32,000 bases of DNA from Patescibacteria group bacterium (GCA_023480925.1 JAMCWY010000019.1:12268-44267); one strand, 5' to 3'; shown: positions 24,680 to 31,586, counted from the first letter of the stretch. Notes: generated by a model not told the origin, from the sequence alone. A program made the numbers and translations.

Positions 24680-26089
24680 TTAATCGTTTAACTCGCCGCT
24701 GTTTTCAACCCGATTGACTTCCTCGACTCGGGCTTTAAATTCGCCTTTATAAATTTTCGCTTTAATCTGATCGCCCGAGACGACTTGATCAATGTCTTTA
24801 ACGACCGCGCCAATCTGATTAATTATAATACTATAACCCAGTTTTAAATTACGACTCGGATTAAAACCGGCCAAGCGCGATCGGCTCAACTCCAACTCTT
24901 TGGTCAAGCGGTTGATTAATTTTTCAAATAAAATCGGCAGACGCGAACCGAACTCTTCGACCGCCTTTTCTTTTTTCGCCCGCATCGATTCAAACTGCCT
25001 GAGATTAAGAATAAATTGGTTGAAAACGTTTTTTGAGCGAAAACTAATTTGGTTTAACTGATTTAAAAGTCGAACGTTTGCCTGATCAAACTCGGCCTGG
25101 CTTGTCTGCAAACCAAACTCAAAAAGATGAGTAATGTTGGTTTCAAATCGGGGTAAGACTTCAATTAAATTTCGCCAAGAATCGTTTATGGCGATCGCGG
25201 CCGCGGTTGGCGTTGACGGAGCCAAGTCGGCAACCAAGTTGGCAATTGGCAGATCGCGCTCGTGGCCGATCCCAGCGATGGTCGGTATCTTTGAGCCAAA
25301 AATCGATCGGCAAACCAGTTCATGATTAAACGGCTGAAGATCTTCAAGACTGCCGCCGCCGCGAATTATAACCAAAACATTCAAACCCGGGCTGGTTTGA
25401 TTAAACCAATCGATCGCTTTAATAATATTGTCAACCGCTTGCCGGCCCTCAACCCGAACATCACGGAAAAAAATTTTATAACCGCGCCGGTCCAAGTTGC
25501 GGCGAAAATCATCGATAACCGCGCCGGTCTTCGACGTGATTAAACCAATCGTTTGGATAAACTCGGGCAGTGGCCGTTTCCGTTCGAACAAACCCTCAAG
25601 TTCCAGTTTTCGCTTAAGTAGATCATAAGCTTTTTTTAAGGCGCCCTCGCCGACCAATTCCAAACCTTCGACCAAAAAACTCAGCCGGCCCTTGGCTTTA
25701 TAAATCTCGGCCCGACCGCTTACCTTAATCGCCATGCCTTCAGCTAAGGTCAAACCAAGACTGCGATAAAGACCGGGGCGGATATAGCAGTTTAAAACCG
25801 CCGTTTCTTTTTGGTCCTTTAAAGCGAAATAAACGCCGGTTTGATGATGATTAAGTTCGGTAATCTCGCCCAATATAGAAACAATTTGAATCGCCAAAAC
25901 TTCGTTAAGTTGGTCGATAAAATCAGCGACGCCAAACAGACGCTCGGTTGAAATCGAAGATTCGGCCGAATCGAAACCGGCCAATCTTTTTTTCTTCTCG
26001 TCGTCGCTCAAAACCAACTTAAGGCGGCTTGATTGAAATAAATCACTCTCGGCGCCGCTATTTTTTCTTCGATTGATTCGCTTAGCCAT
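24680..26089 (-). CDS. xseA: exodeoxyribonuclease VII large subunit
   Basis: N-terminal OB fold (ILGEITELNHHQTGVYFALKD), then the catalytic region (IGLITSKTGAVIDDF...IIRGGGSLEDL...GIGHERD). Confidence 0.88.
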   Translation of the reverse strand: MAKRINRRKNSGAESDLFQSSRLKLVLSDDEKKKRLAGFDSAESSISTERLFGVADFIDQLNEVLAIQIVSILGEITELNHHQTGVYFALKDQKETAVLNCYIRPGLYRSLGLTLAEGMAIKVSGRAEIYKAKGRLSFLVEGLELVGEGALKKAYDLLKRKLELEGLFERKRPLPEFIQTIGLITSKTGAVIDDFRRNLDRRGYKIFFRDVRVEGRQAVDNIIKAIDWFNQTSPGLNVLVIIRGGGSLEDLQPFNHELVCRSIFGSKIPTIAGIGHERDLPIANLVADLAPSTPTAAAIAINDSWRNLIEVLPRFETNITHLFEFGLQTSQAEFDQANVRLLNQLNQISFRSKNVFNQFILNLRQFESMRAKKEKAVEEFGSRLPILFEKLINRLTKELELSRSRLAGFNPSRNLKLGYSIIINQIGAVVKDIDQVVSGDQIKAKIYKGEFKARVEEVNRVENSGELND

Positions 26090-26774
26090 TGGCTTCTTCC
26101 GGTTCAGATTGGCCTAATCGACTAAATAACTCGATCATCTCTTCTTTCGAATAAATATCGAAGTCGCGCAGCTCACCCAAATAATTTTGTTCATAAGTTT
26201 TTAAGTACTGGTTGACGTAATCCACGATCGCGTCGGTTCGGCTAAAATTTTTCTTAAAAAGATCGAAACCATATTGAAGCTCAAGCAGATGCGCCTGGCG
26301 AATGGCGAAAAGCCAAGCTGAACGTTCCGCCAATAAAACTTCTTCGTATTCTTTTTTAATCGCTTTTAACCTTGACTCCGGATAAATATTAGCCTTGTCC
26401 AATGCTCTCGATTTCTGATTAGCTTTTATCGCCGACCAGATGAATTCCGTCTCAGTCGAATCAACAACATGACCAATTTCGTGAAGGAGGTTGAACAAAT
26501 CCTTAATCTCGTCAAATCGCCCGACCAAAACTTCCGGTTTTTGACCATGATGATTAGGCATAACCGCTGACCAATCATTCTTCCGACTTAACCTAAATTT
26601 CGTTCCGGCCGGTACAAACCAGTTAAAATCGAGAACGATCAGATTATCCTTTTTGAAACCGATAAACAAATCGTCATTTTCTTTTCTTTTAATCGTCAAC
26701 TTTAAACCCTGACCCAACTCGATTGATTTTTCTTTTTTCAACCAACCCAATCCCTCTTTTAATTGATTGAACAT
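26082..26774 (-). CDS. hypothetical HExxH (HEIGH) putative metallopeptidase-like protein
   Basis: LLHEIGHVVD motif. The start is moved to the ATG at 26774 because TTGGCG-N17-TATAAT (the -10 at 26782-26787, minus) sits 7 nt upstream of it. The 3' end overlaps the xseA start by 8 nt. Confidence 0.55.
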   Translation of the reverse strand: MFNQLKEGLGWLKKEKSIELGQGLKLTIKRKENDDLFIGFKKDNLIVLDFNWFVPAGTKFRLSRKNDWSAVMPNHHGQKPEVLVGRFDEIKDLFNLLHEIGHVVDSTETEFIWSAIKANQKSRALDKANIYPESRLKAIKKEYEEVLLAERSAWLFAIRQAHLLELQYGFDLFKKNFSRTDAIVDYVNQYLKTYEQNYLGELRDFDIYSKEEMIELFSRLGQSEPEEANG

Positions 26775-26883
26775 TACTAATATTATAAAACTAGAAATAA
26801 AAACTCGCCAACTCGACAATCAGAACAGTTGATTTAAAACAACCATGAAAATAACTCGACCAAAAAGCAACGAGAGAACGAAT

Positions 26884-27552: not shown

Positions 27553-27626
27553 TGCGGGGTCGTCTAATGGTAGGACCGTGGACTCTGGATCCATGTATCT
27601 AGGTTCGAATCCTAGCCCCGCAGCCA
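27553..27626 (+). tRNA. tRNA-Gln (anticodon CUG), CCA encoded
   Basis: I folded it by hand. The acceptor is TGCGGGG/CCCCGCA (U1-A72) with discriminator G73 and CCA. The D stem is GTCT/GGAC. The anticodon stem is GTGGA/TCCAT with loop CT-CTG-GA. The T arm is CTAGG-TTCGAAT-CCTAG. Total length is 74 nt. Confidence 0.93.
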
Positions 27627-27637
27627 AATTTGACGCA

Positions 27638-27839
27638 ACAAACTTTTGACATTATTTTGCCGAATTTAATCCACAAATCTAAGAAACGAGACCTTACCTG
27701 ATAGTTGCCCGCCGCCTGCGGCGGCGGGTAGGAAAACCCGTCGGCTCTCGCGGGCAAAAATTTTTCCCCTCAAACTCCCCCAATTTTTGGCCGCGAGACA
27801 ACCACAAAAGATTTACAAAATCAGTGAGATAGTGTATAA
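27638..27839. repeat. left copy of the 202-bp inverted repeat (IR-L)
   Basis: It matches the reverse complement of 30423-30624 at 194/202 positions with no gaps (hand alignment). Confidence 0.95.
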
Positions 27840-27840
27840 A
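27812..27840 (+). promoter_or_regulatory. inward-facing promoter TTTACA-N17-TATAAA at the inner end of IR-L
   Basis: -35 at 27812-27817, -10 at 27835-27840, and an exact 17-nt spacer. Confidence 0.6.
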
Positions 27841-27845
27841 GTTAA

Positions 27846-28238
27846 TCAGTACATTCAAATTCCAAACGAAAAGAGAAGAGGTGTAACTGTGTTTATTTAT
27901 ATCGGTGGCGTACCCGGGAACAGATGCTTACGATAACGCTCATTGTCGCGACCCCCATACCATCTGCGTCGCCGTCTCAAAGACGCGGACGATCGGCATG
28001 ACCGTAAGCGTAATATTGATTTTCTGATTCACGAACAGAAAATAGAAGTCAATATTGCCGTTTCTCAAGCCGCAGAACTCGGCATTCCTCTTTGCTGCGT
28101 GAGTAATAAGGGTGGCGAGAATCCGATAGCTTCGGAAGTACTTTTCTCTTTCTGTGTCCACCAAGCGCTATGCCGCAAAATACTGCGGCGCATCTTTCCC
28201 TGACCCACCGTACATTTCCCTACGGTGGGTTTTTATTT
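27846..28238 (+). ncRNA. candidate structured non-coding transcript (~390 nt), family unknown
   Basis: It is bounded by the IR-L promoter and a strong intrinsic terminator, and it is locally GC-enriched. It contains several helices, including 27926-27932/28003-28009, a 15-bp bulged hairpin at 28012-28056, and 28172-28189. The only ORFs are TTG-initiated, lack an RBS and mutually overlap. Confidence 0.45.
28203..28238 (+). terminator. rho-independent terminator (plus-strand orientation)
   Basis: ACCCACCGTA (28203-28212), an 8-nt loop, then TACGGTGGGT (28221-28230), followed by TTTTTATTT. On the minus strand no T-run follows the stem. Confidence 0.8.
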
Positions 28239-28781
28239 GAATACGCAATTTTCTTTAGTAATACCGTGGTTTTTTTTATAATCTTCCCATAGACCAAGGT
28301 ATGCCCTGGTAATCCTTGGCCGATCTAAAAGATTAAATTCGTTGAGATACCGATCTATTGTTTTCGGTTCACCCTCAAACTCAACAAAAAAACCGAAAGG
28401 TAATTTGTCAAATGAGATAGCAATATCATTTTTGAAAACATTTTTTCGTTTTTTCTCAAAAATAATTTCTTTGCTAAAACCCAAAGACCTCAATATCTCC
28501 CTCAAATTTTCAATATTTTCACCCTCTTTCATTTTTATCTCCAGTTCTTCTCGCTCAAAAAACTGGGCGTTTTCTCTTGTTTTTCTTTTCACAGTTAAAA
28601 TAATCTCTTTTTTCTCTCCTTCTACATATTTAATTCTTGGGAAAATGCCATCTTTGATGTTTGAAAAATCCTCTTTGAAATAGCCAAAGGTTCTTTCCAG
28701 GTGGAAATTATCAAAACCATCGGTAAAACGGCTAAATTCTTCAGGCGTTAATTCAATTTTTACTTCTATTTCTTTTTTCAT
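28233..28781 (-). CDS. CYTH-domain protein (triphosphate tunnel metalloenzyme; CyaB/ThTPase-like)
   Basis: N-terminal ExExK motif (EIEVKIE), plus further acidic strand motifs (REELEIK, FVEFEGE). It is 182 aa. It overlaps the upstream gene by 29 nt. Confidence 0.7.
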   Translation of the reverse strand: MKKEIEVKIELTPEEFSRFTDGFDNFHLERTFGYFKEDFSNIKDGIFPRIKYVEGEKKEIILTVKRKTRENAQFFEREELEIKMKEGENIENLREILRSLGFSKEIIFEKKRKNVFKNDIAISFDKLPFGFFVEFEGEPKTIDRYLNEFNLLDRPRITRAYLGLWEDYKKNHGITKENCVFK

Positions 28782-29664
28782 ATTTTTCTTCTTTTTCGTG
28801 GTCGTAATACGTTGGATATTTTTCAGACATTGGGAATCTGTATTTTGTTTGGTCTTTCACTCCCGCTTCTTTATATCCCCTCCGTCGGTCCCAACAAGTG
28901 GGACAATCGCCGCATTCGATATCAAATGATTTAACACAGGTTCTTGCTTTGTGCAGGGGTATTCCGTTTTCGAAAGACCATTTTATAAAAACATCTTTAT
29001 CAAAATAATTTCCAAACTCCGTTTCTATGGGGAGTGATATAAACTGCCAAGACCAATCGTTCAGTATTTGACAAAATAATATGTTCATTAACCTAACCCA
29101 AGTTTGAGAACAGTGATAGGAAAAATCCGAACTCATATTAGAGGCGAATACTGTTTTTGTTTCAACCCCCAGTGCTTTTAAAGAATAGCCGTACTCCATT
29201 CCGGTTAAAAATACTATTGGTCCTCTTGCCGGATAAGATATGTTATGACTTAACGGAATATCATCCATTATTCTTTTTGTTTTTCTCAATAAATCCTTGT
29301 ATTCCATCCCCGGCGTCATAATAGTTATCTCTTTATAATTGTGATAAAGTTTTGGGAATTTTCTCTTGTAAAATCGGTCAAAATAATCTACTGACTTCTT
29401 CTCATATTTGTAGTTTGACTGGCCCCTGTTTATGAAAAATGGATAAACATTCAAACTAAATTCTTTTAACAGTATTTCTATATTGGCAACGGAATCTTGG
29501 CCGCCAGACAAACAAGCAACAACGCTATCACCCCCTTTTGGCATTTTAACAACATACCCTCTTTTACTTTTCAGGATACCATCATATATCTTGAGTAGAG
29601 TAATATCCTCATTCTCTTTATTTTCGAATTTTACTTCTCCTTGTTTATTCAGTATTTTGGTCAT
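28753..29664 (-). CDS. QueC-like PP-loop ATPase (7-cyano-7-deazaguanine synthase family)
   Basis: PP-loop ACLSGGQDS and a C-terminal Cys cluster C-x7-C-x2-C-x2-C (CVKSFDIECGDCPTC), followed by RRRGYKEAGVKDQTKY, as in QueC. It has a roughly 45-aa N-terminal extension. Confidence 0.72.
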   Translation of the reverse strand: MTKILNKQGEVKFENKENEDITLLKIYDGILKSKRGYVVKMPKGGDSVVACLSGGQDSVANIEILLKEFSLNVYPFFINRGQSNYKYEKKSVDYFDRFYKRKFPKLYHNYKEITIMTPGMEYKDLLRKTKRIMDDIPLSHNISYPARGPIVFLTGMEYGYSLKALGVETKTVFASNMSSDFSYHCSQTWVRLMNILFCQILNDWSWQFISLPIETEFGNYFDKDVFIKWSFENGIPLHKARTCVKSFDIECGDCPTCWDRRRGYKEAGVKDQTKYRFPMSEKYPTYYDHEKEEKYEKRNRSKN

Positions 29665-30388
29665 AGTGCTTGTATGATTTGATTATTTCTTTTGCTTCCC
29701 CAACGGTTTCTTGATAAATATGTGCATCAGTTATAAAACCATCCAATGGCCCAACCCAAACATTGGTGTTCAATTTTTCTTTTAATCGTTCTACTACTTC
29801 CTTGGACAAAAGAGAGATTGCGACAAAATTTCCTCCAGCTTTTTGATACGCATCTATCGATCTTGCGTTAAATAATGTATTCATGTGATACCCCCTTTCC
29901 CCATTCATTTTAATAAGTCGGAATTGGACAGTTGTAATGCAGGGCAAATAATCATCTTTGGGCCTATCCAAAACTCTTTGATAATCCTCGTGTCTTATAA
30001 AACTCATAATTGCTTTTTTGGATTCTGGAATTTCGGCTAATCTCGCAACCACAAAATCTAACATTCCCCAATCTTTTATTCTTGCATAATAACTTTTACT
30101 ACCGGGACTAAACGAAGGCACGACATCAAAATCGTGCATTATATCCTTGGTGAATGTGAGTTCTATTATCTGGTCTATGTTTTTTTTATCCCCATACTTT
30201 TCAATAAGAACATCGGGGAGAGATTGCGTTGCTGATTTCATACGGATATTCTGCAGACTAACTCTTTTTCTCCCATCATCTTCAGTGAGCACTCCATTTT
30301 TAATAATCGCTTCAACTAAGCTCAACCAGACGCTTCCTATTGTTTCACCGAAAATGTTATAACCGAATGGTTCTAGTTTGACATACAT
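29645..30388 (-). CDS. thymidylate synthase (ThyA) fold enzyme, archaeal-like short form
   Basis: It carries LPCITTVQF (catalytic Cys with Q at +5), ARSID followed by N at D+8 (GGNFVAISLL), and TDAHIY (D-x-H-x-Y). These match the ThyA active-site layout. Confidence 0.72.
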   Translation of the reverse strand: MYVKLEPFGYNIFGETIGSVWLSLVEAIIKNGVLTEDDGRKRVSLQNIRMKSATQSLPDVLIEKYGDKKNIDQIIELTFTKDIMHDFDVVPSFSPGSKSYYARIKDWGMLDFVVARLAEIPESKKAIMSFIRHEDYQRVLDRPKDDYLPCITTVQFRLIKMNGERGYHMNTLFNARSIDAYQKAGGNFVAISLLSKEVVERLKEKLNTNVWVGPLDGFITDAHIYQETVGEAKEIIKSYKHYDQNTE

Positions 30389-30421
30389 AAGTTTAAATTA
30401 TTCACAAAAACGATGGTTTAA

Positions 30422-30450
30422 ATTATACACTATCTCACTGATTTTGTAAA
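30422..30450 (-). promoter_or_regulatory. inward-facing promoter TTTACA-N17-TATAAT at the inner end of IR-R, driving the ThyA-like/QueC-like/CYTH operon
   Basis: On the minus strand the -35 is at 30445-30450 and the -10 at 30422-30427, with a 17-nt spacer. The ATG at 30388 implies a leader of about 27 nt with no Shine-Dalgarno sequence. Confidence 0.65.
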
Positions 30451-30624
30451 TCTTTTGTGTTTATCTCGCGGCCAAAAATTGGGGGAGTTTGAGGGGGAAA
30501 ATTTTTGCCCGCGAGAGCCGACGGGTTTTCCTACCCGCCGCCGCAGGCGGCGGGCAACTATCAGGTAAGGTTTCGTTTCTTAGATTTGTGGATTAGGTTT
30601 GGTAAAATAATGTCAAAAGTTTGT
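30423..30624. repeat. right copy of the 202-bp inverted repeat (IR-R)
   Basis: Reverse complement of IR-L, with 8 substitutions and no indels. Confidence 0.95.
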
Positions 30625-30625
30625 G

Positions 30626-30647
30626 GGTGTTCTAATTCCGCAGCCAA
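30626..30647 (+). repeat. degenerate copy of the tRNA-Gln T-arm/3' acceptor end (putative att remnant)
   Basis: GGTGTTCTAATTCCGCAGCCAA compares with the tRNA's AGGTTCGAATCC[TAGCC]CCGCAGCCAA. The exact 10-mer CCGCAGCCAA occurs at 27618-27627 and 30638-30647 in the same orientation. Confidence 0.5.
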
Positions 30648-30916: not shown

Positions 30917-30953
30917 ATTATTGGCATTTTATTATTTAAGGAGGAAAGAAAAA

Positions 30954-31586
30954 ATGGGTTTATTCATCGTGTTTGAAGGAGTCGACGGTTCAGGCAAGAC
31001 GCAGCAGAGCCGACTACTGAGCGACCATCTCAAAAGAAAGGGGTATAAGGTTCTTTTAACCAAAGAACCGGGCGGCGACGATTCAATCTCTTATATGATC
31101 AGATTGATCTTGCTTAACCCCGACCATAAAAACAAAATAGCGACCAAAACCGAGCTGATGCTTTTCGAAGCTGACCGAGCTCAGCATATTGATCGTACCA
31201 TCATGCCTGCTCTTAGAAACGACGAGATCGTCATATCCGACCGGTTTGACGCCGCCACTTACGCTTATCAAGTTTACGCGAGAAATGTTTGTTCCGCTGA
31301 AGAATTCTTTCACTTGAATGAATTCGTAACAAACGCTTTGTCGCCGGATTTTACTTTCTGGCTCGATTTGGACCCAACTATCGGCTTAAAACGCAACGCT
31401 AACGCCGGGAAAAAAGATCGATTCGAACTCGAAGGGATTGAATTCCACCGAAACGTTCGAGAAGGATATATAGAATATTTTCAAAATATCCCGGAGGAAA
31501 AGTACGCCAAGATCACCACCAATCGGCCGATTAAAAAAATCCACGAAGAAATTCTTCAGATTTTGGATAAAAAATTCAAAATCTAA
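30954..31586 (+). CDS. tmk: thymidylate kinase
   Basis: MGLFIVFEGVDGSGKTQQ P-loop, LTKEPGG, and a DRF/D-R motif region. The start is set at the ATG behind a strong SD rather than the track's upstream TTG. Confidence 0.88.
   Translation: MGLFIVFEGVDGSGKTQQSRLLSDHLKRKGYKVLLTKEPGGDDSISYMIRLILLNPDHKNKIATKTELMLFEADRAQHIDRTIMPALRNDEIVISDRFDAATYAYQVYARNVCSAEEFFHLNEFVTNALSPDFTFWLDLDPTIGLKRNANAGKKDRFELEGIEFHRNVREGYIEYFQNIPEEKYAKITTNRPIKKIHEEILQILDKKFKI

Follow-up and report, generated by a model that had tools for sequence, protein, structure and literature searches.

Pre-replicative pyrimidine modification in T4 and SPO1 (summarised in PMC13326640) is carried out by a dCTPase-dUTPase (gp56), a dCMP or dUMP hydroxymethylase and a deoxynucleoside monophosphate (dNMP) kinase (gp1). 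The Z-genome cluster of S-2L is made up of PurZ, MazZ and DatZ. A stretch of 32,000 nucleotides from a Patescibacteria group bacterium (GCA_023480925.1 JAMCWY010000019.1:12268-44267; the window in what follows, with positions counted from its first letter) holds an operon of three genes that can be compared with these pathways. It encodes a ThyA-fold enzyme (here called ThyA-like), a QueC-family PP-loop ATPase (QueC-like) and a CYTH protein. The operon is read here, with a probability of roughly one half, as a horizontally mobile module, found in Patescibacteria, in a few DPANN archaea and in one phage or more, that builds a non-canonical pyrimidine deoxynucleotide at the level of the free nucleotide. 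By analogy, the module is most likely a T4/SPO1/S-2L-style pathway, acting at the deoxynucleoside triphosphate (dNTP) level, for a non-canonical 5-substituted or aminated pyrimidine made from dUMP. The operon consists of the following elements.

29645-30388, minus strand: ThyA-fold enzyme of 247 amino acids, first gene of the operon (open reading frame read from the sequence)
28753-29664, minus strand: QueC-family PP-loop ATPase of 303 amino acids, overlapping the ThyA-like gene by 20 nt (29645-29664)
28233-28781, minus strand: CYTH protein or triphosphate-tunnel metalloenzyme of 182 amino acids, overlapping the QueC-like gene by 29 nt (28753-28781)
30422-30450, minus strand: sigma-70-like promoter TTTACA-17-TATAAT upstream of the ThyA-like gene, matching the consensus at 11 of 12 positions

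A first-pass annotation, made from the sequence alone, had described three overlapping minus-strand reading frames behind one near-consensus promoter, and both the coordinates and the two overlaps proved to be exact; a promoter-like site lies at 30450-30422(-). Its assignment of the products to the ThyA, QueC and CYTH families also holds, on the strength of Pfam matches, two modelled folds and the conserved CYTH residues. All three assignments are remote in the Pfam scan of the window proteins, and the NCBIfam equivalogs for thymidylate synthase, QueC, QatC and CyaB score far under their cut-offs. The three reading frames are intact. Against four orthologues, dN/dS values of 0.04-0.13 were obtained for the ThyA-like, QueC-like and CYTH genes, with synonymous sites near saturation, and on these comparisons the three genes are judged to be under purifying selection; that they are decaying and non-functional is ruled out by the same values.

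Related loci were collected by homologue search, by eleven contig look-ups and by a scan of one genome per species, which together gave about 35 loci, some of them on duplicate contigs. In almost every one of about 30 Patescibacteria and DPANN loci, the QueC-like gene directly follows the ThyA-like gene, mostly with an overlap. A census of 36,145 genera placed the QueC-like family in 33, belonging to the Patescibacteriota and a few Nanobdellota. A ThyA-like gene was present within 3 kb of the QueC-like gene in all 12 cases of the top band, in three of nine in the 20-39% band and in none of the six in the lowest, and the reverse census found a QueC-like gene beside the ThyA-like gene in 18 of 18 cases of its top band. 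Random places, used as a control, gave 0 pairings. The pairing persists down to a QueC-like identity of 33-38%. The first-pass annotation had allowed that the trio might be a chance grouping; gene neighbourhoods show that it co-occurs widely, and coincidental adjacency is ruled out by the census in both directions against 0 at random places. The distribution is patchy: 2 of 201 genomes of the same order carry the module and none of 11 others of the same family, and homologues bear Nealsonbacteria, Paceibacteria and other Patescibacteria names. Literature searches found no description of the trio, of a QueC-like protein with a thymidylate synthase or of a PP-loop enzyme with hypermodification, in agreement with the first-pass annotation, which knew of no described pathway or defence system with this trio, and the module thus appears to be undescribed.

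The ThyA-like protein matched PF00303 at 3.2e-7 (30.2 bits, above the cut-off), and its equivalog scores were 37.8 for TIGR03283 (cut-off 174.55) and 27.3 for NF002495 (cut-off 327). Since the single sequence was uninformative against the PDB, a profile search was used there. The AlphaFold2 model, with a predicted local distance difference test (pLDDT) value of 91.2, aligned with ThyA-fold chains over about 200 residues at Z 17-22, and on the evidence of this model the protein has the ThyA fold. Its best structural matches were the phage dCMP hydroxylase AfhB (9iqu/9iqc; 9iqu at Z 21.7) and the CMP hydroxymethylase MilA (Z 19.4), followed by canonical thymidylate synthases at Z 17.4 or less; T4 dCMP hydroxymethylase gave Z 16.9. 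In 21 family members, profile-aligned to ThyA, C150, R176, S177, D179, N187, H223 and Y225 are invariant, and so is D221. We take C150, R176, S177, D179, N187, D221, H223 and Y225 to be the counterparts of C146, R166, S167, D169, N177, D205, H207 and Y209 of E. coli ThyA. The motif PESKKA stands where the E. coli enzyme has PDSRR, Lys-Lys taking the place of the Arg-Arg phosphate clamp that the partner subunit provides (R126, R127). Only 22 residues follow Tyr225 and the folate-contact segment has no conserved Trp; the folate contacts W80 and W83 of E. coli ThyA and its folate-closing C-terminal tail have no counterpart.

The residues that are diagnostic within the ThyA fold at the N177, D169 and L143 positions have been compiled (PMC13326640). 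By these diagnostics, dUMP and not dCMP is the expected substrate, since Asn occupies the N177 position, and the Asp, instead of Asn, at the D169 position argues against an enzyme of the flavin-dependent 5-hydroxylase type. Methylases have Leu and hydroxymethylases Asp or Glu at the L143 position (PMC13326640); the invariant Tyr147 found there in the ThyA-like family, with Asp-Asp directly before it, fits neither. The protein is predicted to be dUMP-specific and to act at C5. It differs from a canonical thymidylate synthase, and its short C-terminus, the missing folate-stacking Trp and its nearest structural kin point away from plain methylation. With AfhB, MilA and T4 dCMP hydroxymethylase, which are non-methylating members of the fold, it shares its shortness (about 220-250 core residues) and the catalytic Cys, but it differs from them in having Asn at the N177 position, Asp at the D169 position and Tyr147 with the preceding Asp-Asp.

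Other ThyA-fold and ThyX proteins were met during the scan. Divergent ThyA-like domains are present within open frames of about 470-540 amino acids in seven genomes (G010, G066, G075, G077, G202, G208 and G209), and in G030 a ThyA-like domain adjoins ThyX; these are further uncharacterised variants of the fold in Patescibacteria. A protein of about 540-570 amino acids with two tandem weak ThyX (PF02511) domains occurs in many genomes of the order and in several carriers of the module (examples are G001:C62:19360-20613 and proteins of G201, G213, G216, G221 and G227).

The QueC-like protein matched PF06508 at 4e-9 and phrog_1550 at 1.6e-18. Its AlphaFold2 model (pLDDT 91.4) matches the QueC structures 3bl5 (Foldseek 2e-7) and 2pg3 as well as Cap9 (9nto). 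Fold, SGGxDS motif, xPxRN motif and C-terminal Cys4 zinc motif are common to this protein and canonical QueC; the PP-loop S53-G-G-x-D57-S58 and the Cys4 site (C243, C251, C254, C257) are invariant, with a Cx7C spacing versus Cx8C. The motifs YxQxHxxE, VPxRN and YPDC have been defined for the substrate pocket of QueC (PMC13329287). In the QueC-like protein RGQx5E stands for YxQxHxxE and YHC for YPDC, while YPxRN is kept; Tyr35 of QueC is replaced by Arg80, and Tyr189, which follows the first zinc Cys, by Val-Lys. The basic residues gained in this way would, from the sequence comparison, suit a phosphorylated substrate. Compared with canonical QueC the protein is also longer, by about 45 residues at the N-terminus and by about 35 at the C-terminus, and its TIGR00364 score is 17.4, far under the cut-off of 150.3. 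As with canonical QueC there is no glutaminase partner, and free ammonia is therefore the likely source of nitrogen.

FolE (PF01227) and QueD (PF01242) were found neither in this 94%-complete genome nor in six relatives, QueE having not been searched for, and the QueC-like protein is thus an orphan with respect to queuosine synthesis. Canonical queuosine synthesis is ruled out by this result and the TIGR00364 score; a tRNA-guanine transglycosylase (TGT) gene is present in the genome, and in relatives that have no module as well. The first-pass annotation had named ordinary ThyA and QueC proteins and a housekeeping CYTH beside queuosine genes as one of the findings that would undo its proposals, and what was found instead are equivalog scores far under the cut-offs and neither FolE nor QueD. 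By these comparisons the module differs from ordinary thymidylate or queuosine synthesis.

The third protein matched PF01928 at 1.7e-4 (21.9 bits, just under the cut-off of 23.2), its orthologue on the viral contig L088 reaching 38.8 bits, and in the PDB it matched the Saci_0718 triphosphate-tunnel metalloenzyme at 5.5e-5. The ExExK motif (E4, E6, K8) and R49, K65, R77, E79, K110, R112, D125, E134 and E136 are invariant in 13 CYTH orthologues, and the protein is predicted to be a nucleotide triphosphate hydrolase. In the 35 loci fetched (some of them duplicate contigs) the third gene of the module encodes CYTH in 24 and a Ham1 nucleoside triphosphate (NTP) pyrophosphatase in 6-7; the two never occur together. 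In P0074 and L022, Ham1 is fused to the C-terminus of the QueC-like protein. Because Ham1 displaces CYTH or is fused to the QueC-like protein, CYTH is assigned the role of an NTP hydrolase tied to the QueC-like substrate.

A kinase is almost always near the module, either as a divergent Tmk inside it (L003, L005, L016 and L020) or as an AAA_17/phrog_761 protein, here called K200 (14 loci). Intact K200 orthologues of about 200 amino acids match both AAA_17 and the phrog_761 thymidylate kinase. Beside the module the window has a kinase remnant and a tmk gene.

27880-28203, plus strand: K200 remnant, an AAA_17/Tmk-like kinase pseudogene, identified by tblastn with the intact L009 and L027 orthologues and by direct reading
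30921-31586, plus strand: tmk (dTMP kinase), divergent neighbour outside the repeat-bounded islet described below; TIGR00041 168.3 bits, cut-off 83.25

In the remnant the P-loop codons (27880-27918) are followed by a stop, about 105 codons have been deleted, and the last 82 codons (27943-28188) are left; this C-terminal part persists as an open reading frame of 86 amino acids. The adjacent tmk is the only one in the genome (a single PF02223 match) and, since K200 has been lost, is a candidate module kinase.

In relatives with a QueC-like identity of 33-42%, the ThyA-like/QueC-like/Ham1 core adjoins genes for nucleoside diphosphate kinase (NDK), HD-domain and dNK-like proteins; NDK is adjacent to the module in L102 and L104. 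Collierbacteria have a dCTP-deaminase-family (DCD) gene directly before the QueC-like gene. A ten-gene array on one strand of a Collierbacteria contig (L100, 1768-8911) runs from Ham1, a second QueC-like gene (QueC-like-2), a class I/II aminotransferase, a ThyA-like gene of 204 codons and an AAA_17 kinase to a DCD-family gene, QueC-like, Ham1, a Nuc_deoxyrib_tr-like gene and PfkB, and looks like an enlarged form of the module.

The link with phages is provided by a 41.8-kb IMG/VR contig (L088), which has phage hallmark PHROG matches and carries all three genes, with identities of 45% (ThyA-like), 56% (QueC-like) and 37% (CYTH). The trio lies in a unidirectional block among replication and recombination genes: an HNH endonuclease, a phrog_298 exonuclease, NinB and YopX are encoded to one side of it and a DNA methyltransferase and GroEL to the other, and the block also has the gene of an M23 peptidase. 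A viral scan with the ThyA-like profile gave no match and missed even the L088 orthologue, which marks the limit of the search patterns used. A collection of phage GenBank entries yielded no ThyA-like match and, for QueC, only the protein of phage Dp-1 (23% identity). From the ESM Atlas came only clusters with a generic QueC annotation, several of which are viral.

Related loci thus combine a gene for a ThyA-fold or synthetase step with genes for a dNTP hydrolase and for a dNMP kinase; in the window the kinase is represented by the pseudogene and the adjacent tmk. With T4 and SPO1 the module has in common a ThyA-fold enzyme for a pyrimidine dNMP, the presence of both a dNTP hydrolase and a dedicated dNMP kinase in the neighbourhood, and the occurrence on a phage contig. 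It differs in adding an obligately coupled QueC-like protein and in having a hydrolase of the CYTH or Ham1 instead of the dUTPase/MazG type; moreover, most copies are in cellular Patescibacteria and DPANN genomes, where they are under purifying selection. The likeness to the S-2L cluster lies in an NTP pyrophosphatase that yields the dNMP, followed by an ATP-dependent synthetase of the amination type, with host kinases to finish. Here, however, a pyrimidine instead of a purine would be the substrate, a QueC-like protein takes the place of the PurA homologue and a ThyA-fold step is added.

The combination of a hydrolase, a ThyA-fold enzyme, a PP-loop enzyme and a Tmk-like kinase, in places with NDK, follows the logic of pre-replicative modification, and a flow of four steps is therefore proposed, all of them inferred from family membership and gene context. 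In the first step CYTH, or Ham1 elsewhere, would hydrolyse a pyrimidine dNTP and thereby supply the dNMP substrate, remove the competing canonical dNTP, or both. Cys150 of the ThyA-like protein would then attack C6 of dUMP, and a substituent would be placed at C5; uracil is proposed as the base because Asn187 and Asp179 point to it. In the third step the translationally coupled QueC-like protein would adenylate an oxygen function of the nucleotide and exchange it for nitrogen from ammonia or another amine. This function could be a carboxyl group borne by C5, treated in the same way as carboxy-deazaguanine on its way through the amide to the nitrile, which would require non-canonical chemistry of the ThyA fold. 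Alternatively, it could be a ring carbonyl, as in GMP synthase or ThiI, a reaction that would be new for the QueC family and ordinary for PP-loop enzymes. Finally, a Tmk-like kinase and NDK would produce the triphosphate for the DNA polymerase; in this genome, where the module's own kinase has decayed, the housekeeping Tmk next to the module would take over.

The Tmk-like kinases lead us to favour a product with a thymine-like face, and 5-carboxamido-deoxyuridine, 5-cyano-deoxyuridine and a ring-aminated analogue of thymidine are candidates. A 2-thio or 4-thio pyrimidine was also considered, although genes for sulfur carriers were not seen and the Cys4 site resembles the zinc site of QueC. Formation of a 5-methylcytosine nucleotide through amination at C4 is disfavoured because the associated kinases are Tmk-like. 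That Patescibacteria and DPANN cells, and not only phages, would make an undescribed pyrimidine deoxynucleotide with the ThyA-like protein and a QueC-like partner recruited from 7-deazapurine to pyrimidine chemistry, and put it in their DNA, is a tentative and rather doubtful proposal.

A modified-pyrimidine pathway after the T4/SPO1 model had been one of two hypotheses of the first-pass annotation. Its outline stands, as judged from the pairing, the exchange of hydrolases, the kinases, the phage contig and the separate canonical synthases of other carriers, and its chemistry is conjectural. Several points weigh against it. Each of the chemical steps is an inference. The chemistry of QueC needs the oxygen of a carboxyl or carbonyl group, and the methyl or hydroxymethyl group delivered by ThyA-fold enzymes provides none at C5, so that the chemistry of one of the two enzymes would have to be unprecedented. 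CYTH enzymes usually free the gamma-phosphate and Ham1 frees pyrophosphate, and the presumed equivalence of the two is one of position. The Tmk-like kinases speak against a cytosine-like product and do not identify one. L088 is the only viral contig found. Carriers with a canonical ThyA would have mixed pools, and the product would have no obvious use in the cell. In the present genome, which has no other ThyA or ThyX, a plain dTMP role would fit.

The last point leads to the rival that survives best, an alternative or auxiliary supply of thymidylate, which is nevertheless unlikely. CYTH or Ham1 would convert dUTP to dUMP, the ThyA-like protein dUMP to dTMP and Tmk dTMP to dTDP, with the QueC-like protein as an accessory that, for example, gives one-carbon or redox help in a folate-poor organism. 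The genome (507 kb, 94% complete, 23 contigs) fits such a scheme in that the ThyA-like gene is its only member of the ThyA and ThyX families. Searches of this assembly found no other ThyA (PF00303), no ThyX, no PF00692 dUTPase, no PF00383 deaminase (the dCMP deaminase family) and no dihydrofolate reductase, while CTP synthase (PyrG), serine hydroxymethyltransferase and class I/II ribonucleotide reductase are present together with the TGT and the one Tmk already mentioned. The adjacent tmk, the retained uracil-specifying Asn and catalytic Cys, Asp, His and Tyr, and the fact that thymidylate synthases are often carried by phages point in the same direction. Against it, most other carriers have a further gene of the ThyA or ThyX type: among 27 of their genomes a canonical ThyA (E <= 1e-54) occurs in 15, a canonical ThyX in 1 and a fused double ThyX-like protein in 6, which makes 22, and a dUTPase-family match was obtained in 19. 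In the order at large, ThyX matched in 41 of 101 sampled genomes and canonical ThyA in about 24, and the remaining ones presumably rely on salvage. Since about one-third of the genomes without the module match neither canonical ThyA nor ThyX, salvage is common in the order. No known way of making thymidylate involves an obligately coupled PP-loop ATPase. The ThyA-like protein itself, far under the equivalog cut-offs and structurally nearer to modifying enzymes, has neither the folate-contact Trp nor the C-terminal tail of E. coli ThyA.

The wider clade of the QueC-like protein, for which an exhaustive profile search gave 210 clusters at E <= 1e-30, is diverse. A sister clade of about 410 amino acids has a C-terminal fusion to PqqD, the recognition domain for ribosomally synthesised and post-translationally modified peptides (P0162, P0153 and about 40 more). 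The genes for these fusions (L093 996-2243 and L095 1005-2231) adjoin ScmC-like genes, small open reading frames (one of 38 amino acids), methyltransferase genes and ABC exporter genes, a context in which the QueC scaffold seems to be put to an undescribed use in peptide modification. On another contig (L096, 3382-8451) the gene for a QueC-like protein (P0128) overlaps that of a 501-aa glycosyltransferase, with a methyltransferase and a pyridoxal phosphate (PLP)-dependent decarboxylase encoded before it and a Nuc_deoxyrib_tr-like gene after it, an arrangement that is reminiscent of nucleoside tailoring clusters. Because of the PqqD fusions and the varied neighbours in this clade, the QueC scaffold seems to serve several amide-forming tasks, and rivals of the defence, peptide and natural-product kind therefore stay alive at low probability.

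Defence against phages, the other hypothesis of the first-pass annotation, is less likely still. The QueC-like protein could join a nucleobase to a protein in the manner of Cap9, of the type IV cyclic-oligonucleotide-based anti-phage signalling system (CBASS), or of QatC of QatABCD, or the module could make a nucleotide analogue that poisons phage replication, the kinases boosting its pool as they do in prokaryotic viperin systems. Cap9 and QatC are, like the present protein, members of the QueC family repurposed away from queuosine, and Cap9 (9nto) was the best sequence match among solved structures in the profile search of the PDB (7.9e-10); the PADLOC QueC model matched at 5.6e-14. The patchy distribution suggestive of horizontal transfer, the toxin-antitoxin or Abi genes beside some relatives (HEPN/NTase in L007, AbiEii in L094) and the PqqD peptide-binding domains of close relatives, from which it follows that peptide substrates occur in the wider clade, would also suit such a function. 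None of the expected partners is there, however: CD-NTase, the TGT-like Cap10, QatA, QatB and QatD were absent from beside the module both in the window and in about 35 related loci, so that the suggestion of a CBASS-IV or Qat-like system found no support. The neighbours in the window are an HD-domain gene, tmk and the kinase remnant, and the constant partners, in a module that a phage contig carries too, are enzymes of nucleotide metabolism. The QueC-like protein scores 17.2 with the QatC equivalog NF041925, for which the cut-off is 280, PADLOC gives no match for the ThyA-like protein or for CYTH, and the searches for FolE and QueD gave no source of carboxy-deazaguanine.

Least likely of the three is a free modified pyrimidine base or nucleoside, used as an antimetabolite or in a cofactor-like role and not as a DNA precursor, after the example of mildiomycin (MilA/MilB) or bacimethrin (BcmA-D). 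The structural match of the ThyA-like model to MilA (Z 19.4) is in its favour, as are related QueC-like genes that sit with Nuc_deoxyrib_tr-like genes, presumably of the same fold as the N-glycosidases MilB and BcmB, in clusters where PfkB, a glycosyltransferase, a PLP decarboxylase, a methyltransferase and an aminotransferase are encoded as well. Such glycosidase and tailoring genes are, however, absent from the module in the window and from most orthologous loci, Tmk-like kinases, NDK and NTP hydrolases point to a triphosphate as the end product, and in L088 the module stands among phage replication genes.

A predicted complex of the ThyA-like and QueC-like proteins had an ipSAE of 0.00, which weighs neither for nor against binding.

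The surroundings of the operon in the window add to the picture of a mobile module. Besides the genes given above they contain the following features.

27553-27626, plus strand: tRNA-Gln(CTG), abutting the left arm of the repeat; possible insertion site of the islet
27638-27848, no strand: left arm of an inverted repeat of 211 nt, facing the K200 pseudogene
28202-28231, no strand: terminator-like hairpin with an 11-bp stem and then a T-run, separating the convergent kinase remnant and CYTH gene
30414-30624, no strand: right arm of the 211-nt inverted repeat, holding the operon promoter and GC-rich hairpins

The two arms are 94% complementary (fold z = -4.75), and in each of them a GC-rich hairpin of 9 bp is accompanied by a second, long hairpin and by a promoter-like site that reads inward; the site in the right arm drives the operon and that in the left arm faces K200. 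Two further contigs of the same assembly carry partial copies (G000:C6:164-248 and C16:5450-5511). Nothing but tRNA matched in Rfam, at gathering or at E <= 1, and the upstream RNA of the first-pass annotation is thus not a known riboswitch, but a repeated element, which may be a regulatory repeat or one resembling a miniature inverted-repeat transposable element. Among sequencing runs, the locus occurs only in Logan DNA contigs from one mine-tailings study, with no RNA run listed for it, and these contigs break at the repeat arms; one low-depth variant of a metagenome contig skips 30400-30634 and with it the right arm. Just outside that arm, at 30628-30647, lies a degenerate direct copy of the 3' end of the tRNA-Gln gene (GTTCTAAT..CCGCAGCCAA). 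The GC content is 0.35-0.37 over 28-30 kb, as compared with mostly about 0.39-0.46 elsewhere in the window. The tRNA-Gln gene at the left arm and the degenerate copy at the right suggest that the module is an islet of about 3 kb inserted at tRNA-Gln; no integrase is present. The promoter within the repeat, the tRNA-Gln site and the decayed module kinase go beyond the first-pass annotation. Farther to the left, at 26082-26819(-), an open reading frame of 245 amino acids without a significant Pfam match lies between xseA-like and HD-domain genes.

A recent survey of the whole QueC family assigned its members roles in tRNA modification, defence, cofactors and purine salvage and listed no ThyA-linked clade (PMC13329287, 2026). 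If the proposal made here is true, a first pyrimidine-directed function would be added for this family, and the ThyA fold would have gone through another switch of cofactor or chemistry, after that of the flavin-dependent dCMP hydroxylases. With three or four genes the module is small and within reach of the E. coli co-expression and liquid chromatography-mass spectrometry assay that has been used on phage ThyA homologues, and it could be a source of new modified dNTPs for biotechnology. Should the product turn out to be dTMP, the obligate pair of a ThyA-like and a PP-loop enzyme would still be a new route to thymidylate. In the candidate phyla radiation and in DPANN, DNA modification and the conflict between phage and host are almost unstudied; a new DNA base made by this module would extend the natural chemistries of DNA into both groups.

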